Source of the DNA: Pseudomonadota bacterium | Lineage (GTDB): Bacteria > Myxococcota_A > UBA9160 > JADFDR01 | Length of the DNA stretch: 64,000 nucleotides | NCBI GenBank assembly: GCA_003353845.1 | Contig: PIVT01000010.1 | Span: 4,042-68,041 of the forward strand | Reading direction: 5' to 3' | Part shown: piece after piece, positions 25,182 to 42,218 of the stretch | How positions within the stretch are numbered: the first letter of the stretch is position 1 | Layout of the letters: each line of letters starts with the position of its first letter | Made by a program: the position numbers and the translations under genes | The notes under the pieces: generated by a model | The model's database searches: none | Told to the model about the DNA's origin: nothing | Seen by the model: the letters and a program-made list of their open reading frames with translations, nothing else

Positions 25182-26525
25182 ATGAGCAATAGAAATCACC
25201 CCGAAGAAGTTCGCTTTACTGATATTGCTGATCCCGAACTTGGTTGGCAGCAAAAATTGGCTTTGTACTTTGGTGAAAAGCAGAAGGTTTCTTTTACGCA
25301 GGCTGCGGTTTTGGCTCAGGCACAAAAGAGAACGGGACTTTCTGACTTCGGAGCCGAAGACTTTCATGAGCCGTTACAAGTCTTACTCGATGAATACAAG
25401 GGCGATGATGGGCTTACGGCTTTAAATCGTCAAATCCTGTTCAACAATCTAGTCCGCTATGCAAGCAATCGCCTGCTAATCGAGGATGTTCTCAAAAGGC
25501 ATCCTGAAATTCACGATATTGAAATAAGAAAACCAACTGTGGTGGTAGGTCTCCCGCGTTCGGGGACCACTCATTTGTTGAATCTCCTTGCGGCAGACCA
25601 GCGTTTTCGCTCCCTGCCACTCTGGGAATCCTATGAGCCACTTCATGTCCCGGGAAAAGAAAAGCCAGAGGCTTTGCGTGCTGCGTTGATCAAGCTTGTT
25701 GACGGGATACGTACCTTGCGAGAAAAAGATTTTACTCCTTCCTCGAATCAGTTTGATCCACGTTATCGTCGTTGTGATTTTGAATGGAAGATGATGCAAG
25801 TCATGGCGCCGCACATTGCAGCGATGCATCCCATGAATCCAGATCACATTCACGAAGAATTAGAATTGATGGGTCCGGATTTTTCTTCGTATATCTTTGA
25901 GTGGACGGCCATGGTGCCGAACTATCGTGATTATTATTACAAGACAGATCAGGCCCCTCATTATGAGTACATGAAAAAAGTGCTCAAAATTTTGCAGTGG
26001 CAAAAAGGTCCTGATCGCTGGGTGCTGAAATGTCCGCAACACTTAGAGCAGCTTCCGGTGCTGCAGAAGACCTTTCCAGATGCCACTTTTGTGGTGACAC
26101 ACCGTGACCCCATTGCGGTCATTCAATCTGCAGTCACGATGATGGCCTATGCTCAGCGGATGGGTCGCAAGAAGGTTGAAACAAAAAAACTGATTGAATA
26201 TTGGACCGATCGAATTGAGCATTTGCTACGCGCCTCGATTCGGGATCGTCATGTTCTTCCCGACGCGCAGACAATCGATGTCTTGTTCCACGAATTCATG
26301 GCGGATGATCTGGGCATGATTGAGAAGATCTATGCAAAAGCAGGTGTTGAGATGACCTCCGAGGCGAAAGAACAGCTGGAAGGGTTCGTTCGCGATCATC
26401 CACGCGGGAAGCATGGTCGTGTCGTTTATGATCTGAAGAATAACTTTGGCGTTGATCCCAAATCGCTACAGGAACGTTTTGATTTCTATTACAATCAATT
26501 CCCGGTTAGAAAAGAGCACGGATAA
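25182..26525 (+). CDS. PAPS-dependent sulfotransferase family protein
   Basis: It has the 5'-PSB loop GLPRSGTTHLLNLL and a 3'-PB-like VVTHRDPIAVIQS. Confidence 0.8.
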   Translation: MSNRNHPEEVRFTDIADPELGWQQKLALYFGEKQKVSFTQAAVLAQAQKRTGLSDFGAEDFHEPLQVLLDEYKGDDGLTALNRQILFNNLVRYASNRLLIEDVLKRHPEIHDIEIRKPTVVVGLPRSGTTHLLNLLAADQRFRSLPLWESYEPLHVPGKEKPEALRAALIKLVDGIRTLREKDFTPSSNQFDPRYRRCDFEWKMMQVMAPHIAAMHPMNPDHIHEELELMGPDFSSYIFEWTAMVPNYRDYYYKTDQAPHYEYMKKVLKILQWQKGPDRWVLKCPQHLEQLPVLQKTFPDATFVVTHRDPIAVIQSAVTMMAYAQRMGRKKVETKKLIEYWTDRIEHLLRASIRDRHVLPDAQTIDVLFHEFMADDLGMIEKIYAKAGVEMTSEAKEQLEGFVRDHPRGKHGRVVYDLKNNFGVDPKSLQERFDFYYNQFPVRKEHG

Positions 26526-26542
26526 AGGTTTTGGGGGCACGA

Positions 26543-28416
26543 TGTTTCAAGCGAAGTCGAATCGGTTGGATGGAAAAGTGTGCATGGTTACAGGACCGAC
26601 AAGTGGCATCGGTCGGGAAGTCGCTCTTGAGTTGGCTTCTCTAGGCGCGAAGCTCATCCTCGTAGGGCGCAACCCCGGTAAATGCGAGCAGTTAAAGCGG
26701 GACATCCTGGCTAAAGGTGGAGGAGCACCTGAAATTATTATCTGTGATATGGGATCAATCAAACAGGTGGCACAAGCGGCCCGGCAGTTCTTGGATCTGG
26801 GTTTGCCATTGCATGTCTTGGTGAATAACGCGGGTCTTTTAAATCAGAGACGAATTGAAACGGACGAGGGGCTTGAGCAGGCCATGGCTGTGAATTACTT
26901 CTCAGCTTTCCAATTAACGCTTTCACTTCTTGACTGTATGAAGAAAAGTGCTCCTGCGCGAATCATAAATGTTGCCTCAAGCAGTTATCCCTTGGGAAAG
27001 ATCAACTTTGAAAATCTGAACTTCGAAAGATCCTATGGCCCCATCAAGAGCTATGCGGCTTCGAAGTTGGCGACGATTCACTTCACTCGTTTGCTGGCTA
27101 AAAAACTTGAAGGCACGCGGGTCACTGCAAATGTTTATAATCCAAAAATGATCTACACCAATCTGGCCGTTAGCAACAACGAGGGTCCATTGGTGAAATT
27201 TGCTGATTTCTTCTGGAAGCGAATCGCGGAGCCCCTGGAGTTTGGGAAAGTCACACCCGTGTTTCTTGCAACGTCGCCTCGGGTGGCCGATGTGTCGGGG
27301 AAATTCTTTGAGGACTGCAGGCAAGTGCCCTTGAAAAAGAAGGCACTTGATGATCGGGTGGCGAAAAGGCTTTGGCACAGAAGTGAAGTGATTGTTAACG
27401 CAAGATCAGGGTCCGACACACCTCTTGAAGAGGGTGTGATTAATATCGGCATTCTAGGGGCGGCAAGAATCGCTCCCTTTGCTTTGTTGAAACCCGCCAG
27501 GTCGATTCTAGGCGTGAAGGCCTATGCGGTAGCCGAGGAGTACCAACCCACTGAAGCCTTGCAGGAATTTGCCATAAAGCATGACATCCCATACACGTAT
27601 CCTCGATTCGATGAGCTCTTGCAAGATGCTCAGATTGATGCCGTATACATTCCTCAACCGATCAGCATGCATGCAAAGTGGGTGCTTCAAGCCATTCGTG
27701 CGGGTAAGCATGTTCTTTGTGAAAAACCTCTCGCCGCCAATGCTGAAGAAGCGCAAGAAATACATGATGCTGCCCGGGGAACAGGCTTGGTCGTGAGTGA
27801 GGCCATGCATTTCTGCTATCACCCCATGGTTGATCGAGTAAAAGAAGTGATCGCAAGTGGGGAAATCGGAAGGCTTGAGCATATCGATGCCAGCTTCAGC
27901 GCCTTTCTACCCTTTAATGATTTCCGCTTTAACTACGATTTGGGGGGAGGCTGCACCATCGATATGGGTTGCTATCCCATCGGTTTTATCCGCGCAGTGA
28001 CAGGGATGGAACCCGAAGTGGTTTCCGCAAAGGCGGGTCTGCACGGAGACAAGATTGATCGATGGATGGATGCAGATCTGCAATTTGCGGATCAGAGCAC
28101 AGCCAAGATCTACATGGGGATGCGTTCTCGTAAAGTTCTCAGTGTTTCGATGAAGATCATCGGAGAGCGTGGGACTATCGACATTGTGAATTTCATCAAG
28201 CCCGAACTCTATCACCGGCTTGTGATTAAAACCGATCGGATGAAGCGCCGTGAAACCATTTACGGAAAATCAACCTATGCCGCTCAATTGGAGGCCTTTG
28301 TGCGGGCCGTCAAGACGAAAACTCCCATTTTGACTTCGACTGAAGATGCTGTGAAGAATATGCGCGTGATCGATGCGGTCTATTTAAAGGCGGGCCTTCC
28401 GGTACGTGGTAGTTGA
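26543..28416 (+). CDS. Fusion protein: N-terminal classical SDR plus C-terminal Gfo/Idh/MocA oxidoreductase
   Basis: The SDR half has TGPTSGIGREV, NNAG and YAASK. After ~300 aa the Gfo/Idh/MocA half has IGILGAARIA and HVLCEKPLA (EKP motif). The ATG at 26543 is preferred; the ORF-track start at 26446 overlaps the sulfotransferase. Confidence 0.8.
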
Positions 28417-29583: not shown

Positions 29584-30069
29584 TTATTTCTGAGGTGCAG
29601 CAACGTCGGGTCGAACCAGTGGAATGATCCCTGCCAACTCGTAGTTGATGACGGAGTCGAGTTTGTTTTCGATTTGGAAGTAGCGCACCACCGTTTTGGG
29701 CGGCAGAACTTTATTGAATTTTTTGATGTACTTCGTTTTTAGTTTCGTTCTGTCGGCTTCGATCTTGAGCGAGGTCTTCAGCATCTCTTGGGATCGGTCG
29801 CCATCCAGTGTTTCGAACTCTTTGGCGAGATCGAGAATCAGGTTGGCGCGCTTGTCATTGAGCTTTCGTAAAGCTACTTGAAATTCATCGTATACTGGCC
29901 AGAACGCCTTGCTCTGCTCGTCGGTCAAGCTCAGATTGTTGGCAACGATCATCTTGCGTTCAACTTCGATAATGGACTGTGTAAGGGCGAGATTGTCCCT
30001 GGTTTCCCCGGCGAGTGCCGGTGACGCCACGAATACCGCTAATAAAATCGCAATGCCTAGACGCTTCAT
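29584..30069 (-). CDS. Small periplasmic all-helical protein (unknown function)
   Basis: It has the signal peptide MKRLGIAILLAVFVASPALA after a GGAGAAAG RBS (start moved from 30189). The product is helical and charged, with no Cys or His motif. Confidence 0.45.
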   Translation of the reverse strand: MKRLGIAILLAVFVASPALAGETRDNLALTQSIIEVERKMIVANNLSLTDEQSKAFWPVYDEFQVALRKLNDKRANLILDLAKEFETLDGDRSQEMLKTSLKIEADRTKLKTKYIKKFNKVLPPKTVVRYFQIENKLDSVINYELAGIIPLVRPDVAAPQK

Positions 30070-30240
30070 TCTTTCTCCTTCTTGCAGGTGAGGTGTCTCG
30101 AAAAAGTTCAGCGATTCTAATAGAAAGGCTTGCGGGATGTCTACCGATAAATCTCTCTGTTGAATATTCCTTGGATTAACGGTGTACACTTCTCTGAAGA
30201 AGTTCGTATCTAGTAGCCACTCTGCCTGGGCATAGGTGTT

Positions 30241-30933
30241 CTAAAGCTCAAACAAGATGACTACAAGCCCTGAGGTCGCCACCGCAACGCCCGCCAGGGC
30301 ATGTCCCCATTTCTCGGTCCAGCGGAAGGAGAGGCGTTCCAGCCCGGCCATTCCCAGGGCGGTCAGAGAAAGCATGGTTACGAGGGTAACCACACTGAAC
30401 ACGACGGCGGTCAGCAGCGCCAGGTCCCATAGGCCACGGCTCGCAGGCAAGATAAAGAGCGGCACCAAGGGTTCACAGGGGCCCAGAACAAAGACGAGCA
30501 AGAGCATCCAGAACGTCAGCGTGTCACCGTTCGTGTCGTCGTGTCCGTGTGGCTCGGATGCGTGTTGGTGAATATGGACGTGGCCCATATGCCTGTGCGC
30601 CTGCAGGTCTCGCTTGTTGCGCAATGCAATCCGCAGGCCCCACATGGCGTAGGCAAAACCAAAGGCCACCAATAGCCAGGCCGCCCAATCGCCACGCCAG
30701 GCTTGGATTTGATCGACGTTGGCGACGCTGGCACCGATGGCGAGGCCGGCGACACCGAGCAGGAGGGATCCCGCCACATGTCCCAGGCCGCAGATCCCGG
30801 CCACGGCCAGCGTGCGCGTCCAACTCCACTTGCGTGCGGCCGCCAGCATGAGGAAGGGAAGATAGTGGTCGGGACCCATGATCGTATGGAGAAATGCCAC
30901 ACCCGCGGCAGCGCTCAGCAATAATCCATCCAT
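30241..30933 (-). CDS. Metal (Ni/Co-type) permease-like membrane protein with a His-rich cytoplasmic loop
   Basis: It is a 6-TM-like protein. It has FLHTIMGPDHYLP in the first half and LGPCEPLVP in the second, with a central loop HRHMGHVHIHQHASEPHGHDD. It resembles the NicO/RcnA-type organisation; the family call is tentative. Confidence 0.5.
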   Translation of the reverse strand: MDGLLLSAAAGVAFLHTIMGPDHYLPFLMLAAARKWSWTRTLAVAGICGLGHVAGSLLLGVAGLAIGASVANVDQIQAWRGDWAAWLLVAFGFAYAMWGLRIALRNKRDLQAHRHMGHVHIHQHASEPHGHDDTNGDTLTFWMLLLVFVLGPCEPLVPLFILPASRGLWDLALLTAVVFSVVTLVTMLSLTALGMAGLERLSFRWTEKWGHALAGVAVATSGLVVILFEL

Positions 30934-30952
30934 TTTTCTTGCCTCAAAACCG

Positions 30953-31750
30953 CTACGCCAAGACGTAGTTTCCGATGAGTTCGCGAACCGCGGACAAGCC
31001 CGGCGAATCCGCGGGAAGATCGGTGACCGGCCGCCCGATGAGATCGTGTTCAGTAATGATCTCGTCGAAGGGAATCATCCCTGCGATGTCCAAATCCAAT
31101 TTTGCTGCCGCATCCCGCAAGAGTTCCTCGTTTCCTCGCACGCGGTTGAACACCAACCCGAGCTTCTGACACTCCATGATATTGTCGACGCGGATCATGC
31201 GTTGAATCACATCGGCGGTCTCCAGGCCACGCGCCGTCGGGTCGGTAATGATCAGCAAGCTGTGGAGTTCACGTACGACCTGTCGATTGATTTGCTCAAG
31301 TCCAGCCTCACCATCGATGAGGATGGTGTCGAAGTTCTTGGAGAGTGCCTCGATGGAACCGCGGAGCAGAGAGTTTACCGGGCAATAGCAGCCCAAGGTT
31401 TCCGTCCTGCCCATGGCCAACACGGAATAGTCGTCCGCCTCGGTCAGGGCCTCCAGCAGCATGTATTCGATCATGTCGCCGATATGAGCTTTTTCCTCTT
31501 CCTTGCCGCGCTTGGCGGTCTTGATGATCTCCTCGCGAACCTCACCCATGGTTCGTCGAACACTCACACCGAGAGCACTGAGAAGTCCCATGGCTGGATC
31601 CGCATCGATGAGCAACAGCCTGCCGGCTCGCCCATCTTCGACGAGTGCGCGCGCCATCATGGCGATGGAGGCGGTCTTACCCGTTCCGCCTTTTCCACAC
31701 ACTGCAATCAGCTTTTTTTCTTTTTCCATCGTTTCCACAGACTCCGACAT
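30953..31750 (-). CDS. cooC: CooC/AcsF-type nickel-insertion ATPase (MinD/ParA superfamily)
   Basis: It has a deviant Walker A (CGKGGTGKTA), a metal-bridging CxC motif (LGCYCPVN), and a size (265 aa) typical of CooC. Confidence 0.75.
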   Translation of the reverse strand: MSESVETMEKEKKLIAVCGKGGTGKTASIAMMARALVEDGRAGRLLLIDADPAMGLLSALGVSVRRTMGEVREEIIKTAKRGKEEEKAHIGDMIEYMLLEALTEADDYSVLAMGRTETLGCYCPVNSLLRGSIEALSKNFDTILIDGEAGLEQINRQVVRELHSLLIITDPTARGLETADVIQRMIRVDNIMECQKLGLVFNRVRGNEELLRDAAAKLDLDIAGMIPFDEIITEHDLIGRPVTDLPADSPGLSAVRELIGNYVLA

Positions 31751-31781
31751 AAAAACCTTCTTGCGTCTTCCCGCACCTTGT

Positions 31782-32603
31782 TTAAGGCACGCTCTCCGCG
31801 TTCACTTGATCCACTGGGTTGTCGACGACACGCAACTCGTCGGACTCTTCATCGGACGAGGTGCTGTGGACAATGTCTCGAATATCGTCACAGACTTCTT
31901 GATCATGGCAGGACGCGCAATCCACTTCACAGTCGATATCGAATCCGCGCTCCTTCCAGGTTTCCTTGATCATTTCCCGACCGATGCTTCGCGTCTCACT
32001 CACAATCAAGTCCAGACCTTTTACGTCTTTCTTCGAACTCGTGATGAAGATGATCTCCATGGCGCTAACGCTAGGTACCTTGGATTTTACGAGGCTCATC
32101 AAAGCGCGACCCAGAGTCTCGAAATCAAAACCCTTGGCACCGGCCTCCTTGCTCACTCGGGCCCAGATATGCTCTGAGGTGCTTCGCAACATATAGCCGT
32201 CGATGTGATCCCCGACGTGTTGTGAACCCTTCAGGCGTTCGTGATCTGCCGGCGTCAGCTTTGGACCCGATACCAGCAAAACCTGGCCAAAGGGTAGGCT
32301 GCCGCCCTCGGATTCAGGAATGTCCGGCCCGATGAGTGTCATTTTGCCGTCGCTCACCAGGGCGGAGTCGGTCGTCCAGAGCAGGTGTGAGGCCGACCCC
32401 ATCTCAGGATTCCCCAGTTCTGCGAAGGTATCTCCGCGCAAGATGATTCCTTGATTCGCGTTCACGCCGATCTGAACTGGCAAGCCTTCGCGAAGCTGTT
32501 CCGGGTCATTGGGGAACTGGAGGCTCTTCGCAGGCCTGTCCTGCTCTTGTAAGAGCTCGACGTAGCGGCAAACGCCCTCGATAAATTCATCGAAGGTTGG
32601 CAT
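31782..32603 (-). CDS. Truncated acetyl-CoA synthase (AcsB/CdhC middle-domain)-like protein with a C-terminal Cys4 motif and acidic tail
   Basis: It is colinear with my recollection of the ACS/CdhC pattern: FAELGNP.., GKMTLIGPDIPE, ..HIDGYML.....HIWARVSKEAGAKGFDFETLGRALMSLVK..., EIIFITS. That is followed by CEVDCASCHDQEVC. It lacks the C-terminal Cys-Gly-Cys Ni-site region. A GAGGTG RBS precedes the ATG at 32603. Confidence 0.55.
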   Translation of the reverse strand: MPTFDEFIEGVCRYVELLQEQDRPAKSLQFPNDPEQLREGLPVQIGVNANQGIILRGDTFAELGNPEMGSASHLLWTTDSALVSDGKMTLIGPDIPESEGGSLPFGQVLLVSGPKLTPADHERLKGSQHVGDHIDGYMLRSTSEHIWARVSKEAGAKGFDFETLGRALMSLVKSKVPSVSAMEIIFITSSKKDVKGLDLIVSETRSIGREMIKETWKERGFDIDCEVDCASCHDQEVCDDIRDIVHSTSSDEESDELRVVDNPVDQVNAESVP

Positions 32604-32656
32604 CAAGGCACCTCATGACACATCTCCATTCCAAACGGTTCAAGCACACAACGCGT

Positions 32657-33982
32657 CTAAGCGAGACCCATACCCTTGAAGAAGTCTGTAACTTTCTCCT
32701 TTACTTCATCAACACTGGTATATCGCTTATCAAAGAGGTCGAGACCGATGTGCATGAAGGGCACGCCCAGCTCACGACAGGTCTCACGCATGATACCTAT
32801 GGTGGCAGAGCCGTCTTTGTGCCCCATATGCCCGGGCCAGATCACGCAATCGATCCGGTAATCCGTCACCATGCGCCGAATGTCCTCCGAGAAATTCTCG
32901 GCTGTACTTCGCGCCTGGCGAATCATGGGAGCATCGAGCAGGTTGCGCTTGGCGAGATCGTGGAAGATCGTTTCTTCTGAGGACGTGTCAATCAAGGTGT
33001 ATGGGAAATTCCCAAACATATCCATCACGATTACCGCGCCAAATTCCGTCTCAAGCCAGGGCATGAACTCGAACACCCAGCCGTAGGGCATGATGTCGAA
33101 CCAGAGCAAGCGAATCTTCTCTGTCCAGCCCTCGGCGGTGTTCGCGCCCTGACCGGCCTTCACTCGTGCTTCGCCGCATTTATAGAGTTGCTCGAACCAT
33201 GCGGTACATCGGGGATCGCCTGCTACGAAGCATTGGCTGATGGCGAAGGCCTGCGCTCCACCGATCTCCCATCCGTGCGGGCTGGGGACATTGCGCCGCA
33301 ACTCATTATAGTCCTGCCACTTGCTATAGGTCTTATTGGACTCGTCACACACCGTGACGAGTTTGTCCATGTCCAAGGTCTTGCCTGTGTGCTCCTCCAA
33401 AAATTTCGACATACGCCGCAACTCATCGGCGAAATACTCCACCGCGCGCTCATCGGATTTATAGGGAGGATCACAGCTATAGATCGGGACATTTTTCCAG
33501 GCTTCATTGTGCTGGAGCACCTGATGCAGCATGGGCGCGCCGTCACAGGGGTAGAGCAGGCCGAGAACGGCCGTAGGCATGGGCATGAGCCCGTTCTCGA
33601 TGTAGTACATGGGGAGTCGAATGGCGGTGCATAGATCCGTCCCCAATCCCATTTCTTCCGCACCCTCGATATCGTTGATCAAGTAGGGTGCTGTCGCTGC
33701 CAGGAATGGCGTTTCCATAACCATGAACCAGGGCAGGTCCATAGCCGTGAACAGCTCCGGCGCGTTGCAGAAATAGCCACCGATGAAGGGCTTATCGTTT
33801 TCGACGCAGTCGACAACGGTTTCCTTGGAATCCAGAAGGATTTCAAGCAGCTTTGCTTGAAGTGCGTTTTCCTCTCCAGGCATCACCTTCGCTGCGCTGA
33901 GCAGCAGCTTGAAATAGTCTCGTTCTTCTTTGTATCGCGATAAGGACTTGGCCTTGATCTCTTCAATATCCATCTTTGCCAT
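32657..33982 (-). CDS. HGD-D family protein (2-hydroxyacyl-CoA dehydratase beta / BcrB-BadE-like subunit)
   Basis: It has conserved Cys contexts (GGYFCNAPE, TDLCTAIR, YPCDGAP) and a length and layout typical of HGD-D components. The start MAKMDIEE lies 5 nt after the upstream stop, with a GGAGAAC RBS. Confidence 0.75.
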   Translation of the reverse strand: MAKMDIEEIKAKSLSRYKEERDYFKLLLSAAKVMPGEENALQAKLLEILLDSKETVVDCVENDKPFIGGYFCNAPELFTAMDLPWFMVMETPFLAATAPYLINDIEGAEEMGLGTDLCTAIRLPMYYIENGLMPMPTAVLGLLYPCDGAPMLHQVLQHNEAWKNVPIYSCDPPYKSDERAVEYFADELRRMSKFLEEHTGKTLDMDKLVTVCDESNKTYSKWQDYNELRRNVPSPHGWEIGGAQAFAISQCFVAGDPRCTAWFEQLYKCGEARVKAGQGANTAEGWTEKIRLLWFDIMPYGWVFEFMPWLETEFGAVIVMDMFGNFPYTLIDTSSEETIFHDLAKRNLLDAPMIRQARSTAENFSEDIRRMVTDYRIDCVIWPGHMGHKDGSATIGIMRETCRELGVPFMHIGLDLFDKRYTSVDEVKEKVTDFFKGMGLA

Positions 33983-33986
33983 CAGT

Positions 33987-35141
33987 TTAGTTCTCCGCCG
34001 CTTCGAGCTTTTCCAAGAATGCTTGTACACGTGTTCTGAGTTGCCCTTTGCCGCTCAGAATGTATTCCCGATCAAGTGCCATGAAGGGGATGCCATCGTC
34101 TTTGAGGTCGAGATTCGTCATGTAATGTTCGACGAGCCACTGATCACAGAAGAGCAAGCGCTCGCCAATGATGCCGTCCACATTGAATTCCTTGGCCATC
34201 TCCCGCGTGTAGTCGATGCGACGTTCTTGATCGCCATACATTCGGGGGCAGGAGGGTCGATCGTAGATGTAGTAGCTCGCCAGGGCCTGTACCGGGTCGA
34301 GATTGTCTTCGTCCACGGGCCGCCACATCAACCGGGTACCGAAACAAGTGGAATCGGTAACGACGAGTCCCCCTTGTTCCTCGATGATCTTGATGTACTC
34401 GGGATCGTCGAGTTCGCCGCCCACGATCATGATTCGGGCTCGGTACTTCCCCGTCCCTTCGTGGCCGCTAAGGTCTTCGAGTAGTTCTTCCAGTAAAGCC
34501 TTGTACTGAGGTCTTGGCATGGCCGTGCCAGCCACCATGACGGCGAGGGTTTCCGTGCCGGTAATGGGCGGATTATCAACCTTCCTCAGCTCATACAGTT
34601 GCTTTTGTAAGCTGCGAATCTCATTGTGGAGCTTGATGGCATCACGCAGATTCTTATCCGTAATCTCTACTTTGAAGTGCTCTTCAATTTGACCCTTTAA
34701 AACATTGATTTCATCGCGGTACCAATCGATCTGAGGTTGCTCGATCTTGCGAGGAAGGCTCATGACCTCGACGAAGGGTGTCTTCAGGTGACGAATCCAG
34801 TTGTCGTAGATGCGCCGGACGTGATCACAGCTGTTGATGCAAATCAGACCGTCGAGAAAATCATATTCGCCCTTGAGAGCTTGATTCATCGTATGCCGAG
34901 GGAAGCTGCAGTTGATGGCGCTGAAGCAGGAGTCCGAGAGTTCCGTCCCCGTGCTCCCCGTCCCGCGCATTCGGAAGGGCATGATCCCAGCTGCCGTGAA
35001 AATCTCTTCGGGTACCGTCGAGCAGAAAAAACCGGCGACCTTGCCACCCTGTTCCTTCCACGCTTCGATCTCGGGATTGAGAATACAGCTACTGGCCTGA
35101 ACAAACTTGTCAAATGCATCCGACTTGATCGACGTTTCCAA
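33987..35141 (-). CDS. HGD-D family protein (2-hydroxyacyl-CoA dehydratase alpha / BcrC-BadD-like subunit)
   Basis: It has GFFCSTVPEEIFTAAG, INCSFPRH and INSCDHVRR, plus a C-terminal FCDQW... pattern typical of HgdA/BcrC. It starts at TTG with an AAGGAG RBS. Confidence 0.8.
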   Translation of the reverse strand: METSIKSDAFDKFVQASSCILNPEIEAWKEQGGKVAGFFCSTVPEEIFTAAGIMPFRMRGTGSTGTELSDSCFSAINCSFPRHTMNQALKGEYDFLDGLICINSCDHVRRIYDNWIRHLKTPFVEVMSLPRKIEQPQIDWYRDEINVLKGQIEEHFKVEITDKNLRDAIKLHNEIRSLQKQLYELRKVDNPPITGTETLAVMVAGTAMPRPQYKALLEELLEDLSGHEGTGKYRARIMIVGGELDDPEYIKIIEEQGGLVVTDSTCFGTRLMWRPVDEDNLDPVQALASYYIYDRPSCPRMYGDQERRIDYTREMAKEFNVDGIIGERLLFCDQWLVEHYMTNLDLKDDGIPFMALDREYILSGKGQLRTRVQAFLEKLEAAEN

Positions 35142-35193: not shown

Positions 35194-35982
35194 TCAATCC
35201 GCCTTGTCTAAGCGCTCGGCGGCGAATAGCGCGGCGCCCAGAGCCCCCGCGATTTGTGGATCCTCTGGCAGTTTTTGCAGCGTGATATCAAGCTTGTCTG
35301 CCAGGGCTTTCGCCAAGCCGTAATTCTTGGAACAGCCACCCGTCAGTGCGACATCCTCAATGACACCGACCCGCCGCGACATGGACATCAATCGAGAGGC
35401 TACGGAGTTGTTGATGCCGGCAATGATGTTCTTGACGTCAATGCCCTCGTTCACCAGGGTGACCACCTCCGACTCTGCGAAGACGCTGCACTGATTACTG
35501 ATCGTGCAAGGATTGTCGCCCTGATTTTCCAAGGCCGAGATCCCTTCGAGTCCGCAGTCGAGCGCTCGTGCCATGGCTTCGAAGAATCGCCCCGTACCCG
35601 CCGCACATCGGTCATTCATGGAGAATTCGAGCACCGCCCCTTTGGGTGAAACGGAAATCACTTTGCAATCCTGGCCACCGATGTCGATGACAGTTCGCAG
35701 AGAAGGGGTCATCCAGTGCGCACCCTTTGCGTGACAGGTGATTTCGGACATGTTTTCCGATGCATAGGGGATCTGAAGTCGCCCATAGCCAGTTACGACA
35801 ACGTTTTCGAGATGGTCGACGGAAGGCAATCCCGCTTGTTCAAGCGCTTGCCCCATGGCCTCGTCCGCTGTGATCACCGGGTTGGTAGTGGATTTGATAA
35901 CCTGCTGGCCGACAATGTCGCCATCCTTGAGGATGACTGCCTTACCGGTGGCAGAGCCTATGTCGATTCCTCCAACAATCAT
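35194..35982 (-). CDS. HgdC/BcrAD-BadFG-type ATPase (activase, [4Fe-4S]-bridged archerase)
   Basis: It has the ASKHA motifs GIDIGSATGKAV and DIGGQDCKVI, the cluster-ligand contexts NDRCAAGTGRF and SNQCSVFAESE, and a size of 262 aa. Confidence 0.9.
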   Translation of the reverse strand: MIVGGIDIGSATGKAVILKDGDIVGQQVIKSTTNPVITADEAMGQALEQAGLPSVDHLENVVVTGYGRLQIPYASENMSEITCHAKGAHWMTPSLRTVIDIGGQDCKVISVSPKGAVLEFSMNDRCAAGTGRFFEAMARALDCGLEGISALENQGDNPCTISNQCSVFAESEVVTLVNEGIDVKNIIAGINNSVASRLMSMSRRVGVIEDVALTGGCSKNYGLAKALADKLDITLQKLPEDPQIAGALGAALFAAERLDKAD

Positions 35983-36231
35983 TCAATCGCTTCCTTTTTG
36001 TAGGGGTGAGTCCGAGTCGGGCTTGAGAGGGTGGGGTGCGCTGAATTCGAAGCGGGGAGTTTCTTTTCGCCCTACGTTATGAACGTCGTAAGGCGTCGGA
36101 ATAAGGGTCACTTGGAAGGTTTTGAATTCATTCATATAAAGCAGCCACCGTAGTTGGATCAAAATAAGAATAAACGTTCGTTAGTTTTTTTGCTAGTGTC
36201 TAAAGGCGAAAAAACCTAGAAATATCAGTAG

Positions 36232-36255
36232 TTTAGAAAGTGTTTACTTTCTAAA
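36232..36255. promoter_or_regulatory. Perfect 10-bp inverted repeat TTTAGAAAGT-gttt-ACTTTCTAAA in the divergent intergenic region (candidate regulator binding site)
   Basis: Read directly from the sequence. An extra TCTAAAG half-site at 36199-36205 repeats 51 nt upstream of the one at 36250-36256. The region is A/T-rich and lies between the activase operon and the His-rich/CooT genes. Confidence 0.4.
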
Positions 36256-36348
36256 GTCAATAGACAACCATCGATTGTGACGGTTGAAAACAGGAAATGA
36301 CGCCTTCTATTCACCTAGAAGGCCTAGACGTGTCCGCAGAGAGGAAAG

Positions 36349-36571
36349 CATGGATTTTCTAGAAAAAGCTTCCACCCGCCTGAAACACTGGCTGGAGCAT
36401 AATCACCATCACGAGGCCGATTACGAGAGCTTCGCCCGCCAACTTGAGGAGGCGAACCAGGACGCCAGCGCGCAATGCATTCGAGATATGATTGCCTTGA
36501 CGCGAAAGAGCAGCGACTGTCTCACAAAGGCCTTGGAGTCCCTTGAGAGTTCTTCAAGCGGGAACAAGTGA
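36349..36571 (+). CDS. Small helical protein with a His cluster (possible metal-binding protein)
   Basis: The 74-aa product reads MDFLEKASTRLKHWLEHNHHHEADYE... and has two Cys further on. A GAGAGGAAAG RBS precedes the ATG at 36349; the ORF track starts at 36284. Confidence 0.45.
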
Positions 36572-36611: not shown

Positions 36612-36806
36612 ATGTGCGATACGAATGCATTCCTTGTGAAACAAGGCGTTCAAGAAAAAATTTTGGAGAGCGTCGACCGTGTCGAATTTCTGGATGGTGA
36701 AATTCGGTTGACGAATATCTTCGGCGAGCAGAGTACGCTGCGCGCAAAGCCGACGCTCTTTGATAACACCCAGGGAGTTCTTCTTTTCGAACCCATCGAC
36801 GGGTAA
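36612..36806 (+). CDS. cooT: CooT-family small nickel-binding protein
   Basis: The 64-aa product starts MCDTNAFLV (invariant Cys2) and continues ...ILESVDRVEFLDGEIRLTNIFGEQ..., matching the CooT-family beta-barrel pattern. A GGAG RBS is present. Confidence 0.6.
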   Translation: MCDTNAFLVKQGVQEKILESVDRVEFLDGEIRLTNIFGEQSTLRAKPTLFDNTQGVLLFEPIDG

Positions 36807-36858: not shown

Positions 36859-38283
36859 CTAAGACTCGGACTCACCAAGATCGGTGGGTTCTTTGTCCCC
36901 GTCTTCGAGGTAGGGGGCGAGGTCCTCATAGCGGCGGTACAGGGTTCGTCGGTCGATGCCGAGAATTCGGGCCGCCTGCATTTTGTTGCCATCGGTACGC
37001 TTGAGAACTTCAGCGATGTATCGGTCTTCGAGTTCTTGAAGCTTCGGTAGGTCTTCGATCGAGTGTTCGAAGAGGTTACCTTGGTTTAGAAGGTTTGTGC
37101 CTAGCTCCTCCTCGTCGAGGAAAGGAAATGCATCTGCATCGATCTCTAAATAATCGGAAAGCGTAATGGCGCGCTCGATGGCATTTTCCAACTCTCGGCC
37201 GTTTCCTTTCCAGGGCGCGGATGCAAGCTTCTTGATCGCCCCCGGTGTAAGACGTTGGCGAGGATCGACTTCATGTCTGCGAAGAAACGCCTCGGCCAAG
37301 ACGCTGATGTCTTCGGGACGTTCTCTGAGGGGGGGGATGTGAATGGGGATGACGCTCAAGCGGTAGTATAGATCTTCTCTGAAGTCTTCTGTCTCAATAC
37401 GGCTTCGCAGGTTTTGATTGGTTGCGGCAATCAGGCGGACATTGGTCCGAAAGGAACGAGTGGCACCGACGGGTCTGACCTCACCGTCTTGCAGGACGCG
37501 CAATAGCTTCGCTTGCATCAAGGGGCTGATATCACCGATTTCATCAAGGAATAGCGTGCCGTCATTCGCTTCCTCGAAGAGGCCTTTCTTTGCAGTGTGG
37601 GCTCCGGTAAAGGCGCCGCGGACGTGCCCGAAAAGTTCACTCTCAAGGAGATTTTCAGGTAGTGCAGTGCAATTGACAGGGATGAAGGCCTCAGACGCAC
37701 GGTCGCTTGAGAAGTGTATCGCTCGTGCCACCACCTCTTTCCCAGTGCCACTTTCGCCTGTGATCAAAACGGTGCTGCGATTAAGCGCAACTTTACGCAC
37801 GACGGCAAAGATCTCGCGCATTGCGGGGCTCTCTCCAAGCAAATCACCATAGGAACTTGTTTGAGCTGCGACAGTTCGCCGTAACTTCGTGTTTTCGTCC
37901 GCAAGGAGCCGATATTCGAAGGCGCGCTCAAGCGTGATGAGCACTTCCTTTCGTTTGAAAGGCTTTGTGATGTAGTGAAATGCCCCAAGTCGCATGGCTT
38001 CCACAGCAGTATCAATTCGCCCAAAGGCGGTCATGAGTATGACTGGTGTGGATGGCCGAAGCTCACGGATTTCACCCAGCAGCTCAATCCCTGATTTGCC
38101 CGGCATTCGAATGTCACTGAGAATGGCCGTGACATCACGGCCTTGAAGAAGCTCTATGGCTTCATCGGCGGAAGAAACGGGAATTCCCTCGATGTTCTCT
38201 TCTTCGAGCATTGAGCAAAGCGTACTTCGCATTGCCGAGTCGTCGTCAACAATCAGGACTGAATGAAGTTTGTTCGTGGTCAT
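36859..38283 (-). CDS. Sigma54-dependent response regulator (NtrC family: receiver, AAA+, Fis-type HTH)
   Basis: It has VLIVDDDSAMR...DIRMPGKSG (receiver), GESGTGKEVVARAIH (Walker A), GAFTGA, ESELFGH and a C-terminal AARILGIDRRTLYRR. Confidence 0.9.
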   Translation of the reverse strand: MTTNKLHSVLIVDDDSAMRSTLCSMLEEENIEGIPVSSADEAIELLQGRDVTAILSDIRMPGKSGIELLGEIRELRPSTPVILMTAFGRIDTAVEAMRLGAFHYITKPFKRKEVLITLERAFEYRLLADENTKLRRTVAAQTSSYGDLLGESPAMREIFAVVRKVALNRSTVLITGESGTGKEVVARAIHFSSDRASEAFIPVNCTALPENLLESELFGHVRGAFTGAHTAKKGLFEEANDGTLFLDEIGDISPLMQAKLLRVLQDGEVRPVGATRSFRTNVRLIAATNQNLRSRIETEDFREDLYYRLSVIPIHIPPLRERPEDISVLAEAFLRRHEVDPRQRLTPGAIKKLASAPWKGNGRELENAIERAITLSDYLEIDADAFPFLDEEELGTNLLNQGNLFEHSIEDLPKLQELEDRYIAEVLKRTDGNKMQAARILGIDRRTLYRRYEDLAPYLEDGDKEPTDLGESES

Positions 38284-38512: not shown

Positions 38513-39514
38513 TCAGTACTTCTTGTTTCCCAGTTTCTGTTGATGTCGGAACCAGCGTGCAGCTTCGGCGATGGATTCTTCAACCGGTCGGGGATTCCAA
38601 TGAAGTTCGTTTCGAGCTTTGCTGTTGTCGAAATCCTGAATGATTCGCGTCAGGCGAAGGCTTTTCACAGACACTTGGGTTTCCCGACCCAATAACCAGT
38701 GAGCCCGTTCAGAAAGCCAGCAACTCAGGTACATCACCCACATGGGCACGCTGGGCACAGGCCAGCGTAGGCCTGTGGCCTTGGCGGCAATGTCCCAGAT
38801 TTGCTTGAGGCTAAGCGTTCGGTCGGTAATCAAGTAGCGCTCGCCGAGGCGGCCATGCTTCTCCGCCAGAACCATGGCGTTGGCGGCATCTTGAATCCCA
38901 ACGGCACTGAAGCGCCCACCCCAAGCGGGCAGCAAGCCGCGAATGACCTCGGTGATCATCCAGCCGTGAGGTGTGGGTTGGAGGTCTTCGGCACCGTAGG
39001 TCATGGCGACATTGCAGGCGACGCCGGGTAGGCCGCGCTTGCAATAGTCGAGAAAAAGCTCCTCGGCTTCGACACGCACGCATACGTATTCCGAAGCTTG
39101 GTCCGCCCAGTTGAAGGCGTCGGCTTCCGTGGCTATCCCCGTTGGATTCAAGCCCAAGGTCATGAAGGTACTGGTATAGATGAAGCGCTCGACGCCGACA
39201 TCCAGAGCCGCGTCCAAGACATTGCGCAAGCCTTCGACGTTGGTGACGCGCAGGGGGGCAGGGTCTTTTAGCCAGGCTCGCGTGTCCACCACGCAATAAT
39301 AGATGGTGGAACAGCCCTGCATGGCTTCGCGTAGCGAGTCTGCGTCGCACACATCACCAATCGCGCGCTCAACTTTTAGATGATCGATGGCCGAAGTGTC
39401 GCTCGTCGCACGAGTGAAGATGCGGATCTCGCGGCCATCCTTGGCCAGTGTCCTGACGACGTGACTGCCGAGAAACCCGCTGGCGCCCATTACCAGGGCT
39501 TTTCCTTCTGACAT
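38513..39514 (-). CDS. Extended-SDR NAD(P)-dependent epimerase/dehydratase or 3beta-hydroxysteroid dehydrogenase-like reductase
   Basis: It has VMGASGFLGSHVV (the GxxGxxG of extended SDRs). The start is moved to MSEGKALVMG (39514); the ORF track gives 39577. Confidence 0.75.
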   Translation of the reverse strand: MSEGKALVMGASGFLGSHVVRTLAKDGREIRIFTRATSDTSAIDHLKVERAIGDVCDADSLREAMQGCSTIYYCVVDTRAWLKDPAPLRVTNVEGLRNVLDAALDVGVERFIYTSTFMTLGLNPTGIATEADAFNWADQASEYVCVRVEAEELFLDYCKRGLPGVACNVAMTYGAEDLQPTPHGWMITEVIRGLLPAWGGRFSAVGIQDAANAMVLAEKHGRLGERYLITDRTLSLKQIWDIAAKATGLRWPVPSVPMWVMYLSCWLSERAHWLLGRETQVSVKSLRLTRIIQDFDNSKARNELHWNPRPVEESIAEAARWFRHQQKLGNKKY

Positions 39515-39584
39515 GCTTATCCTTTGCTGCGGGTGTCTGGCACGCTGGGGTGGAAGGTGGAAGGTACCTTTCTTCAATTCAGGA

Positions 39585-41393
39585 TCAAGCGAGAGGCGGA
39601 GTACCGGTCACGTGGCGTGCCGCTCGGTAGCCAAAGGTCATGGAGGGGCCAATGGTGCCGCCAGCGCCGGGGTAGCTGGCCCCCATCACGGAGGCGGAAC
39701 AATTACCCGTGGCATACAGCCCGGGGATGGGGCTGTCATCTTCGCGAAGCACACGGGCATGGGCGTCGGTGCGCAATCCGCCCTTGGTGCCGAGGTCTCC
39801 CGGCACCACTTTGATGGCATAGAAGGGCGGTTTCTCAATGGGGGCGATACAGGGATTGGGTTTGACTAGAACATCGCCATAGTAACGGTCGATGGTTGTT
39901 TCGCCGCGTCGAAAATCAGGATCTTGTCCCTTGCGGGCAGAGGCATTGTATCGTTCGAGTTCACTCGCAAGGCCTTGGGGATCGATGCCGCACTGGCGAG
40001 CGAGGTCTTCGATACTGTCGGCCTTCTTCAAAAAACCACTTTTTATATATTTCTTCGTGGGCATGCCCAGCATGATCGGGCCGAGGGGATAACGCATGTG
40101 GAAGCGGTGATCGGCAATTTGGAAGGCGGGAATGGCCTTAGCGCCCTGGCGGTGATGCTCCAATTGGGCGTGACCCACATCTAGATAGGGAGCCGCTTCG
40201 TTGGTAAAACGATGGCCCGCTGCATCGACGATGATGGTTCCAGGCAGTGTACGTTCAGGCAAAAGGAACCAGGGAAAATCCTTTCCTTGTTCACGACTGA
40301 GTTCTGTCCACCAGGAGCCCTTGGCGTACCAGGGGAGGAGATGTCCGGGAACCATGGTCGTAGGCATCCACCAAGCTTCGTCCATATTGCCCAGGGAGGC
40401 GCCGACCTCCACGCCCATGCGGATGGCGTCCCCCGTGTTTTCGGGACTACCCGACGACCAGGTCGCGCAATCACTAGAAAAATGGTGGGCTTGTCGCAAC
40501 GTGGGATTTTTGTCAAAGCCACCCGCCGCAATGATGACGCCTTGACGCGCGCGAATTCGGATCGGTTGGCCGCAGCGAGTGGCTTCGACTCCGACAACGC
40601 GCTCGCCTTCGCTAATGAGTTTCGTCACCGGGCTTTCGAGCCAGAGCGGGATGGAACGTTCCATCAGGGCCAGTCGCAGCGCTCCGCACAGCGCATTTCC
40701 AAGCGTGAGGCGCGTGTCTCTCCGAGCAAAAGAGCGTGTGGGGTTTAGAAGGTAGGAGGCGAAGCTAGTCAGAATCGCGAAGCGGGCGCGAAGAGAGGCG
40801 CTTACCATGTCGCGAGCCTCGGCGCTGCGGATCATCCAGCGCCCGAGGATCAAGAGATGTGGTCCGGGAACGCGAAGCTCTTTTCCCCGCTCTCCTAGTT
40901 TTCGCAGGTTGAAGGGCAGAGATTCAAGAGTACGACCTCCCTCGGGTTTGCTGCCCTCCACATGGGGGTAGTAATCGGGGTAATCGCTAGAGATTTCAAA
41001 GCGGAGCGGGCTGTTTTTTTCCAGGTAAGCGACAACTTCAGGGCTGGATTCGACATAGGCTTGGAGCAGTTCTTCTGCGACGCAGCCAGAAGTGATACTT
41101 CGCAGATAGCTAAGCGCTTCCCCTGGAGAGTCACTTAACTGAGCCTTGGCCATGAGGTGGTTATTGGGGATCCAGATGGAGCCGCCCGAAATAGCGGTGG
41201 AGCCGCCAAACACTGAGCTTTTTTCGAGGACCAGGGTCTTGCTGCCGCAGTCTTTTGCCACGAGCGCCGCGGTCATGGCGCCGCCACCAGATCCGATCAC
41301 GACGACATCAACCTCTTCATCCCAATCTGCCACGGTGCCTTTGGTCCTTTCTATAGCGGGGGTTGACTCGTACCGGGAGGGAGAGATTAGCAC
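39585..41393 (-). CDS. FAD-binding flavoprotein, 3-ketosteroid delta1-dehydrogenase/fumarate-reductase-like (FAD_binding_2)
   Basis: It has the dinucleotide fold VDVVVIGSGGGAMTAAL...LEKSSVFGGSTAISGG and the C-terminal GLYATGNCSASVMGASYPGAGGTIG. Confidence 0.8.
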   Translation of the reverse strand: MLISPSRYESTPAIERTKGTVADWDEEVDVVVIGSGGGAMTAALVAKDCGSKTLVLEKSSVFGGSTAISGGSIWIPNNHLMAKAQLSDSPGEALSYLRSITSGCVAEELLQAYVESSPEVVAYLEKNSPLRFEISSDYPDYYPHVEGSKPEGGRTLESLPFNLRKLGERGKELRVPGPHLLILGRWMIRSAEARDMVSASLRARFAILTSFASYLLNPTRSFARRDTRLTLGNALCGALRLALMERSIPLWLESPVTKLISEGERVVGVEATRCGQPIRIRARQGVIIAAGGFDKNPTLRQAHHFSSDCATWSSGSPENTGDAIRMGVEVGASLGNMDEAWWMPTTMVPGHLLPWYAKGSWWTELSREQGKDFPWFLLPERTLPGTIIVDAAGHRFTNEAAPYLDVGHAQLEHHRQGAKAIPAFQIADHRFHMRYPLGPIMLGMPTKKYIKSGFLKKADSIEDLARQCGIDPQGLASELERYNASARKGQDPDFRRGETTIDRYYGDVLVKPNPCIAPIEKPPFYAIKVVPGDLGTKGGLRTDAHARVLREDDSPIPGLYATGNCSASVMGASYPGAGGTIGPSMTFGYRAARHVTGTPPLA

Positions 41394-41423
41394 CTTGATC
41401 GGTACCCGGCCTCCATCGAGGGT

Positions 41424-42209
41424 TCAGGTGGCCGCTAAAAGCCGTTGGATCACTTCGTAGACTTTTGGATTTAACGCAAAGCCCATGTGCGAGGAGTCGA
41501 CTTCAATGTATTCAACGCAGGGCTGATTCTTGAGTCGGGCTGCGGAACTTGGGACGATGCCGTCTCTCTCGCTGTATATGACTTTGATGGGCACATCATT
41601 GGTTTTCAAGCGGCGCAGTTTTAGCCAAACCCCAAAGTCTTGTTCTTCCAGGGGGACGTCCGATCCTTTGACTCGATTTAGTAATTTGTAAAGCGATGTG
41701 CTGCGCGGGTCCCCGTAAGGTGCTCCCATAGTAATCACGTTGCGCGTCAGGTCAGGAACTTCTTGTGAGGCGTCCAAGGCATAAGCACCGCCCATGCTCC
41801 AGCCGACGAGGGAGACTTTTCTCTTTTCAGATTGATAAATTTCTTTGATGCGCTCGACGACAAGACCGCTCATTTTTTTACGGAAGGCGGCGGCCTCCTC
41901 GATTCGGTGGATGCTGTCTTCAGCAGTATCAAAGTTGACGCCTAGCTTCAAGGGGTGCGCTTGGTAACCGATCTTGTTGAGGTAATGTCGAATCAGACCC
42001 ATGGACCCGTCACCCGCGCCATAGCCGGGCAGCGTTAACACAGGGTGTCCATCACCGGGGTGGGCTTTCTTGATCAGTCGCGGCATGCCTACCAGCAGCC
42101 GCGCTACTTCTGCGCCTGAGCGCGGGAACTCACTTAGGGCAAGGGATAGACTCGGTGGTGTTGGGTGGTCGAGCACCAATTCGGATGAAGTCATCCGTTG
42201 ATTGTACAC
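41424..42209 (-). CDS. Alpha/beta-fold hydrolase
   Basis: It has the nucleophile elbow VSLVGWSMGGAYA and a C-terminal D...H pattern (SERDGIV, DSSHMGF). The start is uncertain. Confidence 0.65.
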   Translation of the reverse strand: MYNQRMTSSELVLDHPTPPSLSLALSEFPRSGAEVARLLVGMPRLIKKAHPGDGHPVLTLPGYGAGDGSMGLIRHYLNKIGYQAHPLKLGVNFDTAEDSIHRIEEAAAFRKKMSGLVVERIKEIYQSEKRKVSLVGWSMGGAYALDASQEVPDLTRNVITMGAPYGDPRSTSLYKLLNRVKGSDVPLEEQDFGVWLKLRRLKTNDVPIKVIYSERDGIVPSSAARLKNQPCVEYIEVDSSHMGFALNPKVYEVIQRLLAAT

Positions 42210-42218
42210 CCTGAGAGT

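Follow-up and report, generated by a model that had tools for sequence, protein, structure and literature searches.

A stand-alone protein derived from the acetyl-CoA synthase middle domain is paired with a CooC-type ATPase beside genes for benzoyl-CoA reductase-like enzymes

Introduction

The subject of this study is a gene, here called ACSmid, in a 64,000-nucleotide (nt) stretch of DNA (the window) from contig PIVT01000010.1 of a Pseudomonadota bacterium (GenBank assembly GCA_003353845.1; GTDB lineage Myxococcota_A, UBA9160, JADFDR01). The minus strand of the window carries an operon in the order BcrAD activase, HGDD_1, HGDD_2, ACSmid, CooC-like ATPase and NicO-like membrane protein, in which ACSmid encodes a small protein resembling the middle domain (A2) of acetyl-CoA synthase (ACS; AcsB or CdhC). 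To our knowledge, ACS domains are found only in the Wood-Ljungdahl and acetyl-CoA decarbonylase/synthase (ACDS) machinery, and CooC, CooT and CooJ act only as maturases of carbon monoxide dehydrogenase (CODH) and ACS. We likewise know of no use of nickel or of ACS parts by radical enzymes of the benzoyl-CoA reductase (BCR) and 2-hydroxyacyl-CoA dehydratase (HAD) type. The analysis described here establishes ACSmid as an ACS-derived A2 domain with a conserved patch of three to four cysteines, genetically locked to a CooC-type ATPase and attached to BCR/HAD-type enzymes. On balance, we favor the view that it would be a small accessory subunit with an Fe-S, or possibly Ni-Fe-S, site in an ATP-dependent radical enzyme of the HGD-D/BCR type.

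Results

The ACSmid open reading frame (ORF) spans 31782..32606 of the minus strand, with TTG at 32606, ATG as the next codon at 32603 and a GAGGTG box upstream. Positions of the gene, its domains and its neighbors are collected in Table 1. The translation contains, in order, the blocks FAELGNP, KMTLIGPD, HIDGYM, WARVSKEAGAKGFDFETLGRALMSLVK and IFITS, followed by DIDCEVDCASCHDQEVCDD and an acidic tail, SSDEESDELRVVDNPVD. An earlier reading of this DNA made without database searches (the sequence-only reading) had pointed to a series of ACS-like blocks, and every block it quoted is present in the order given. The only cysteines of the 273-aa sequence are C13, C225, C229, C232 and C238; the Cys patch formed by the last four lies 35 residues from the C-terminus, and a search of the whole product for Cys-Gly-Cys found none. 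The same reading held that the protein does not continue into the A-cluster domain of ACS (A3), and this is what we find: A3 is missing, and the CooC-like gene begins 31 nt past the ACSmid stop codon. Two plus-strand ORFs (30878-31969 and 31503-32177) run antisense to the CooC-like and ACSmid genes. These shadow ORFs are a by-product of GC-rich coding, and their recurrence in related loci reflects conservation of the sense genes alone.

Table 1. Features of the ACSmid locus, in window coordinates.
Feature	Position	Strand	Basis or remark
ACSmid, 273-aa stand-alone ACS middle-domain protein	31782..32603	-	Stop codon within coordinates
A2 domain (CdhC N-terminal / AcsB middle), residues 42-192	32028..32480	-	Pfam envelope; includes W147 and R149
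Cys patch, C225-x3-C229-x2-C232-x5-C238-D239	31887..31931	-	Conservation and CxxC alignment to CdhC C189/C192
Acidic disordered C-terminal tail, residues 247-273	31785..31865	-	Clade-specific; pLDDT <50 for residues 248-273
CooC-type P-loop ATPase, CXC motif C121-Y-C123	30953..31750	-	Best PDB match CooC1 (3kje)
HGDD_2, divergent BzdO-like HGD-D subunit, 441 aa from ATG	32657..33982	-	Pfam HGD-D, E=4e-45
HGDD_1, BzdN-like HGD-D subunit	33987..35141	-	PDB BzdN, E=1.8e-50, and alignment
BcrAD/HgdC-type ATP-dependent activase, single gene	35194..35982	-	Pfam BcrAD_BadFG, E=5e-59
NicO/RcnA/UreH-like membrane protein, 230 aa, candidate Ni/Co transporter	30241..30933	-	Homologue labels and motifs
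CooT homologue, 64 aa, Met-Cys start	36612..36806	+	Pfam PF10133, E=6e-13, above cutoff; divergent from cassette
73-aa helical protein, H13-W-x2-H17-x3-H21	36350..36571	+	CooJ Ni-site motif; no Pfam match

The resemblance of ACSmid to the ACS middle domain is far above chance. Pfam PF03598 (CdhC), a 155-position model of the N-terminal CdhC and middle AcsB domain, matched residues 42-192 with E=4.4e-18 and 66 bits (cutoff 24). NCBIfam models for cdhC and acsB, which are 460-710 positions long, matched in their A2 part only (the first ~160 positions for CdhC, ~300-455 for AcsB), with E values of 1e-16 to 1e-21 and scores far below the full-length cutoffs. A phmmer search of all Protein Data Bank (PDB) sequences with ACSmid returned ACS chains only, with residues 317-474 of M. 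thermoacetica AcsB matched at E~1e-14, and a profile of the ACSmid family reached E=4e-21 against the same database. An AlphaFold2 model built from 114 homologues had a mean predicted local distance difference test (pLDDT) value of 83.7 and a predicted template modeling (pTM) score of 0.81, with the last 26 residues alone disordered. Foldseek comparison of this model with the PDB gave 22 matches, all of them to ACS (E 3e-11 to 1.5e-6), and the next match had E>1. Homology to ACS spans about 155 residues (~40-195). The sequence-only reading, in which the protein was taken for a truncated ACS/CdhC derivative comprising the middle domain alone, is borne out by Pfam, NCBIfam, PDB and Foldseek alike; neither the profile search nor the structure comparison ended in the absence of an ACS/CdhC match that would have told against it.

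ACSmid belongs to a sizable family. A word-indexed search recovered 377 homologues, and the 120 listed were nearly all 250-285 aa long with PF03598 as the sole domain; source labels read 'CO dehydrogenase/acetyl-CoA synthase beta subunit', 'carbon monoxide dehydrogenase' or hypothetical. An exhaustive search of 1.84 billion representatives found 505 clusters at E<=1e-3, of which 305 reach E<=1e-10 (family representatives being defined at 50% identity). The best 150 of the 505 representatives are all at most 310 aa long, and the match extends to about residue 245, Cys patch included. Beyond this point the family diverges: most homologues have a Lys-rich tail, and an acidic tail is limited to the closest relatives of the window protein. 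The emphasis that the sequence-only reading placed on the acidic tail was accordingly misplaced with respect to the family as a whole.

An automatic label of 'CO dehydrogenase/acetyl-CoA synthase beta subunit' on a protein of about one-third the full length could suggest that an acsB/cdhC gene has been broken or is decaying, or that the ORF is an artifact of assembly. With a different gene beginning 31 nt past the stop codon, and with hundreds of same-length homologues, invariant residues and shared neighbors across phyla, we consider this explanation ruled out for practical purposes. ACSmid represents a large stand-alone family under selection, not a broken gene. Literature searches, in which coverage of subscription journals was mostly missing, returned no description of the family or of the gene cassette in which it occurs; the papers retrieved, one on an isoprene reductase among them, dealt with unrelated subjects. 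The components all come from known families; their combination is new. One family member (P0294; L081:235-1161 and L082:216-1142) consists of ACSmid with an intact Cys patch fused to a C-terminal 2x[4Fe-4S] ferredoxin domain, and its gene is followed by a CooC-like gene. This fusion supports an Fe-S and electron-transfer setting for ACSmid.

In 114 close homologues the cysteines of the patch, C225, C229, C232 and C238, are all invariant. Among 125 representatives reaching down to ~28% identity, C229, C232 and C238 are kept in 125/125 sequences, and C225 in 92 (74%), its place being otherwise taken by Glu or Asp; the spacing between C225 and C229 varies from 3 to 6. Conservation of the full set of four, as called for by the sequence-only reading, thus holds for the close homologues, and three of the four for the distant ones. 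When the family profile was aligned past A2 to M. thermophila CdhC (9c0s_E), D-C-x-S-C of ACSmid fell over G-C189-T-L-C192 ('GCTLCQ'), with an HMMER posterior that was only moderate where the ACSmid CxxC meets C189/C192. If residues are instead counted without gaps from the last strand of A2, C225/C229 fall near positions 506/509. By their spacing, CdhC C189/C192 correspond to C506/C509 in M. thermoacetica, which provide the first two ligands of the cubane; C509 also bridges to the proximal Ni. C229-x2-C232 is most likely the counterpart of the CxxC with which the A-cluster motif opens, and under either alignment the patch lies exactly at the start of that motif.

The remainder of the A-cluster site is absent. 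In the alignment of the family profile to ACS, C518, C528 and Cys-Gly-Cys have no counterpart in ACSmid. The A3 cubane set C-x2-C-x8-C-x9-C is incomplete, with just its CxxC matched. Because Cys-Gly-Cys and the rest of A3 are missing, a canonical A-cluster is impossible in ACSmid, in agreement with what had been concluded before. What the family does offer, as a candidate metal site, is an invariant C-x2-C-x5-C with a fourth Cys in 74% of representatives. The [4Fe-4S] loop of endonuclease III and MutY has the spacing C-x6-C-x2-C-x5-C. Since this is nearly identical to the spacing of the ACSmid patch, a cubane on C-x3-6-C-x2-C-x5-C would be sterically plausible; the folds are unrelated and there is no homology, making the loop a precedent for feasibility only.

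In the acetyl-CoA complex of C. autoethanogenum ACS, CoA lies mostly on A2 with its adenine stacked on Trp405, and Arg383 and His386 have been proposed to aid acetyl transfer (bioRxiv 10.1101/2024.08.05.606187). The spacing R-x2-H-x12-G-x5-W would map these residues to R405, H408, G421 and W427 of M. thermoacetica. By phmmer alignment, W427 and R429 of M. thermoacetica correspond to ACSmid W147 and R149, both invariant in the 114 close homologues and kept in 121/125 and 123/125 representatives, respectively. R405 and H408 align to Q128 and G131, where the family consensus is Gln and Ala. As judged from these alignments, ACSmid keeps the predicted nucleotide-stacking surface without the acetyl-transfer residues.

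Gene linkage was examined by scanning one genome per species, and 80 loci were kept of 95 relatives, all from metagenome-assembled genomes. These loci come from more than 10 phyla and include deltaproteobacteria/Thermodesulfobacteriota, Dehalococcoidia and other Chloroflexota, Binatia, Krumholzibacteriia, Ignavibacteria, Bacteroidota, Elusimicrobia, Acidobacteria, Verrucomicrobiota, Actinomycetes, Bacillota and others. Searches by tblastn with the window proteins found HGDD_2 and the CooC-like protein in 74/80 loci each, HGDD_1 in 71/80 and BcrAD in 62/80, the misses being mostly contig ends. In 69 of the 77 informative loci, a CooC-like gene follows ACSmid in the same orientation within 250 nt. 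Within this five-gene cassette, ACSmid-CooC and HGDD_1-HGDD_2 each stay together, and BcrAD occupies different positions in different clades. Unbiased clustering of all flanking ORFs revealed no further gene in more than 10 loci. In members of only 28-39% identity, a CooC-like gene follows here too, with HGD-D or BcrAD genes nearby; L083:1-8466, for example, is a distant variant of the cassette with four HGD-D paralogues, two BcrAD ATPases, ACSmid and a CooC-like gene. The setting of ACSmid between HGD-D genes and cooC, described in the sequence-only reading for this one locus, is therefore real and strongly conserved across loci.

A deviant Walker A motif, GKGGTGKT, is present in the CooC-like protein, whose C121-Y-C123 lies exactly over the CYC of CooC1, in which Cys112 and Cys114 bind metal (PMC6006190). 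Both P-loop and CXC are conserved in at least 90% of 61 orthologues. A weak match to Pfam Fer4_NifH was also seen, and CooC and NifH belong to the same ATPase class. The CooC-like dimer could on these grounds be NifH-like, with a cluster at the CXC interface and ATP-driven transfer of electrons into an ACSmid cluster as a second electron-activation module, a role with which the ferredoxin fusion of ACSmid would agree. We regard this as very unlikely, since the cassette comes with its own dedicated activase, BcrAD, since the CXC motif falls exactly on the Ni/Zn site of CooC1, and since genes for nickel chaperones lie nearby.

Those nickel-related genes flank the cassette on both sides. Cys2 of the CooT homologue, the residue that binds Ni in CooT (PMC6006190), is invariant in 7 orthologues, and the gene adjoins the cassette in 6 other loci (L001, L002, L004, L037, L013 and L021). 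Always next to it is the gene for the 73-aa protein, whose H13-W-x2-H17-x3-H21 is likewise invariant in 7 orthologues; HWXXHXXXH has been reported as the CooJ metal site (bioRxiv 10.64898/2026.03.10.710785), and the protein may be a tail-less CooJ analogue. On the other side, the 230-aa membrane protein contains the motifs HTIMGPDH and GPCEP, together with a His-rich loop (HRHMGHVHIHQH..HGHDD). Labels among its homologues include nickel/cobalt exporter, NicO, RcnA and UreH-like, with sulfite exporter TauE/SafE about as frequent, and some homologues match Pfam PF13386. Its family is very large (3824 matches), yet members occur near the cassette in only 4 loci; outside the window, a homologue lies close to the cassette, inside the 8-kb flanks, in L009, L010 and L021. 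No Prismane/CODH protein was detected among the window ORFs scanned (including most of those of at least 330 aa, of which four were skipped), a scan that did not specifically seek CoFeSP. In the clade of the window, then, a nickel-handling set is attached to the HGD-D/ACSmid cassette, whereas most other clades have the CooC-like protein alone.

The presumed enzyme subunits of the cassette have clear relatives in the BCR/HAD family. HGDD_1 residues C40, C78, C105, C266, C298 and C332 align to BzdN C36/73/100/263/293/327, the ligands of the [8Fe-9S] double cubane (PMC11971306). Five of the six are present in 74/74 orthologues, and C40 is missing only from four sequences that are truncated (70/74); the match to NCBIfam double_cubane has E=9e-64 and is below the cutoff. 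HGDD_2, aligned to BzdO, MbdO and DCCP, is more divergent. BzdO holds its catalytic [4Fe-4S] cluster by C95/C128/C380 (PMC11971306). The counterparts of the first two, C118 and C146 (numbered in the 441-aa form, from which the 457-aa ORF differs by 16), are invariant among 77 orthologues. C380 is replaced within a conserved P-G-H385-M-G-H388-K-D390-G at residues 383-392, with His (H388) in the Cys column in 73/77 orthologues, and C402, 14 residues further on, is near-invariant. The H-x2-H-x-D arrangement suggests a non-canonical active-site cluster or a metal site. The activase scored 247 bits against TIGR00241 (acyl-CoA dehydratase activase; cutoff 125). Its C126 and C165 are conserved and are presumably equivalent to the HgdC cluster ligands C127/C166.

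The unusual His of HGDD_2 was considered as the reason for the presence of ACSmid and the CooC-like protein. This idea was downgraded, since a distant cassette with the same pair (L083) keeps the canonical HGD-D Cys in a GHHACK motif.

A related alternative would place ACSmid outside the mature enzyme, as a maturation adaptor or scaffold that keeps the A2 domain and CxxC, the part of ACS that an AcsF/CooC-type ATPase would recognize. Its patch would transiently take up Ni or a Ni-Fe-S fragment and hand it over to the catalytic HGD-D subunit. Several observations are compatible with such a role: the ACSmid-CooC pair is a near-invariant unit, ACSmid evolves fastest of the five proteins, as chaperones often do, HGDD_2 has the conserved H385/H388/D390 in place of the equivalent of BzdO C380, and CooT and the CooJ-motif protein are encoded nearby. 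Because distant cassettes with the same pair keep the GHHACK Cys, the HGD-D side lacks a constant special Ni site to which metal could be delivered, and fusion to a ferredoxin domain better suits an electron-transfer subunit than a transient chaperone. ACSmid is the constant partner and the HGD-D active-site ligands vary, which makes ACSmid itself the more parsimonious client of the CooC-like protein. Overall, we find an adaptor role credible but doubtful, and prefer that of an accessory subunit of the enzyme.

Cassette flanks differ by clade. CoA-ester enzymes are found in Dehalococcoidia and relatives, and many flanks contain genes for acyl-CoA dehydrogenase, CoA-transferase III, thiolase/ChsH2 or ADP-forming CoA ligase. 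These flanks, together with conservation of the adenine-stacking Trp and adjacent Arg of ACS, could indicate a redox-inert structural or substrate-binding subunit in which A2 binds the CoA moiety of the acyl-CoA, the patch is a structural Zn site and the CooC-like protein has a non-nickel role. Patches of four closely spaced Cys are commonly Zn-binding, and CooC1 has been crystallized with Zn (PMC6006190). Against this, BCR/HAD enzymes bind CoA on their own, the CxxC descends from a cubane-binding motif, and both the ferredoxin fusion and the Ni-chaperone neighbors would be left unexplained. Moreover, in one subclade the linkage is with genes of the linalool dehydratase/isomerase kind and not with CoA enzymes. 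A redox-inert subunit of this kind appears quite improbable to us.

The divergent subclade in question (L026, L028, L045, L048, L061, L074, L076, L077 and L079; e.g. L061:11952-13709) has neighbors of the linalool dehydratase/isomerase family (PF18566), and a 436-aa exported protein is also encoded in its flanks. The PF18566 neighbors hint at terpene or alkenol substrates in this subclade, not CoA esters.

Other genes around the cassette are less widely shared. A sigma-54 enhancer-binding response regulator (36859-38283, minus strand) lies just upstream, with homologues in only 4 loci. A search for sigma-54 (-24/-12) promoters upstream of the cassette gave matches at chance level and none in the AT-rich intergenic region 35983-36350, and consensus promoter and terminator scans at the cassette were uninformative. 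The last gene of the apparent operon (29584-30189, minus strand) encodes a ~160-aa protein with the signal peptide MKRLGIAILLAVFVASPALA and no family match, and is not conserved in related loci. Pfam and NCBIfam contained no match for the 230-aa membrane protein, a 201-aa exported protein or the 73-aa ORF.

Redox enzymes of the kinds characteristic of alicyclic or steroid-like catabolism abound in the surroundings (38513-43883, minus strand; 46711-48777, 50227-52194 and 26446-28416, plus strand). They include two FAD_binding_2 proteins (KstD/fumarate-reductase-like) and two OYE/2,4-dienoyl-CoA-reductase-like proteins, accompanied by an SDR-GFO fusion, an epimerase, an alpha/beta hydrolase and a TetR regulator. 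Elsewhere on the plus strand are genes for a RACo-like protein (reductive activator of corrinoid proteins; 60664-62193), with Fer2, RACo middle and RACo C-terminal domains, and for a B12-binding radical SAM protein (8431-9930).

Discussion

In the reading we favor, ACSmid is a functional, vertically maintained derivative of the CdhC/AcsB type that has kept A2, the linker helix and the first A-cluster cysteines and has lost the rest of A3. We envision a small metallo-subunit that acts as a unit with the CooC-type ATPase of the next gene downstream. Together they would serve an ATP-dependent enzyme of the HGD-D/BCR type composed of a BcrAD activase, a BzdN-like [8Fe-9S] subunit and a divergent BzdO-like catalytic subunit. 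The D-C-x2-C-x5-C core, with a fourth Cys or carboxylate, most likely carries a [4Fe-4S] cluster. The task of the CooC-type partner at the patch is probably to insert or maintain an additional metal, for which nickel is the likeliest candidate. A2 would provide a docking surface, and perhaps a surface for binding CoA or a nucleotide. The analysis demonstrates the homology and fold of ACSmid, the conservation of its motifs, its gene linkage and the presence of genes for nickel chaperones nearby, whereas cluster type, nickel, CoA binding and retention in the mature enzyme are what we infer. For the putative scaffold or electron-entry role put forward in the sequence-only reading, the ACSmid-CooC pairing, the ferredoxin fusion and the neighboring nickel chaperones narrow the possibilities.

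Comparison with known systems helps to place the cassette. With ACS, ACSmid shares a homologous A2 in sequence and fold, the adenine-stacking Trp and the Arg that follows, probably the first CxxC of the A-cluster and, as in acs operons, an adjoining gene of the CooC/AcsF type. It differs in having no A1 or A3, no C518/C528 at normal spacing, no Cys-Gly-Cys and no catalytic Arg/His in A2. Its partners are HGD-D and BcrAD proteins, and no CODH occurs among the window ORFs scanned, CoFeSP being unchecked gene by gene. The CooC-like protein resembles AcsF and CooC in its deviant Walker A, its CXC site and its pairing with an ACS-derived protein, with CooT and a CooJ-motif protein in the clade of the window; unlike theirs, its client cannot be CODH or canonical ACS, and nickel delivery is a predicted function. 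Class I benzoyl-CoA reductase BzdNO(PQ), the double-cubane cluster protein (DCCP) and 2-hydroxyacyl-CoA dehydratases have in common with the cassette the six [8Fe-9S] cysteines of HGDD_1, an activase of the HgdC/BcrAD type and the alignment of HGDD_2 to BzdO, MbdO and DCCP. In the literature we found, no ACS-derived subunit or CooC partner is described for the BCR I/HAD family. Furthermore, the third cluster Cys of HGDD_2 has given way to His in H-x2-H-x-D, and scores are far below equivalog cutoffs.

Several findings weigh against an Fe-S or Ni-Fe-S accessory subunit. The Cys-Gly-Cys thiolates, needed for the proximal nickel (Ni_p) of a true A-cluster, are absent from ACSmid. Catalytic A2 residues (C. 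autoethanogenum R383/H386, M. thermoacetica R405/H408) are Gln and Ala/Gly, and conservation of W147/R149 could be structural. The CXC site of CooC1 binds Zn as well, and CooC1 was crystallized with this metal (PMC6006190). CooT, CooJ-motif and NicO-like genes accompany the cassette in just ~4-7 of ~80 loci, and three loci whose sequence continues for more than 3 kb downstream have no nearby CooC-like gene. In 43/57 loci, none of the five proteins is as poorly conserved as ACSmid, a pattern which fits an accessory protein or chaperone as well as a subunit. Finally, all cassette loci come from uncultured organisms.

In its most far-reaching form, the subunit model would make the cassette a new class of nickel-dependent radical enzyme, in which Ni inserted by the CooC-type ATPase is bridged through C232 to the ACSmid cubane beside a CoA-binding A2. 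We think this unlikely. Were it true, the ACSmid site would make or break a thioester or C-C bond with low-potential electrons supplied by the ATP-driven activase and the double-cubane subunit, and ACS-like organometallic chemistry would have been grafted onto a machine of the benzoyl-CoA-reductase type.

In the cassette, a piece of ACS and an ATPase of the CooC type are fixed partners, attached to radical enzymes of the BCR/HAD type. Even if the proposed link to nickel is false, this defines a large unnamed family that annotation pipelines mislabel as 'CODH/ACS beta subunit', flags environmental 'benzoyl-CoA reductase' annotations as probably belonging to a different enzyme, and provides a five-gene construct that is directly testable by expression. 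If the link is true, the short list of biological nickel enzymes would gain a new client, and a piece of the A-cluster would have been reused.

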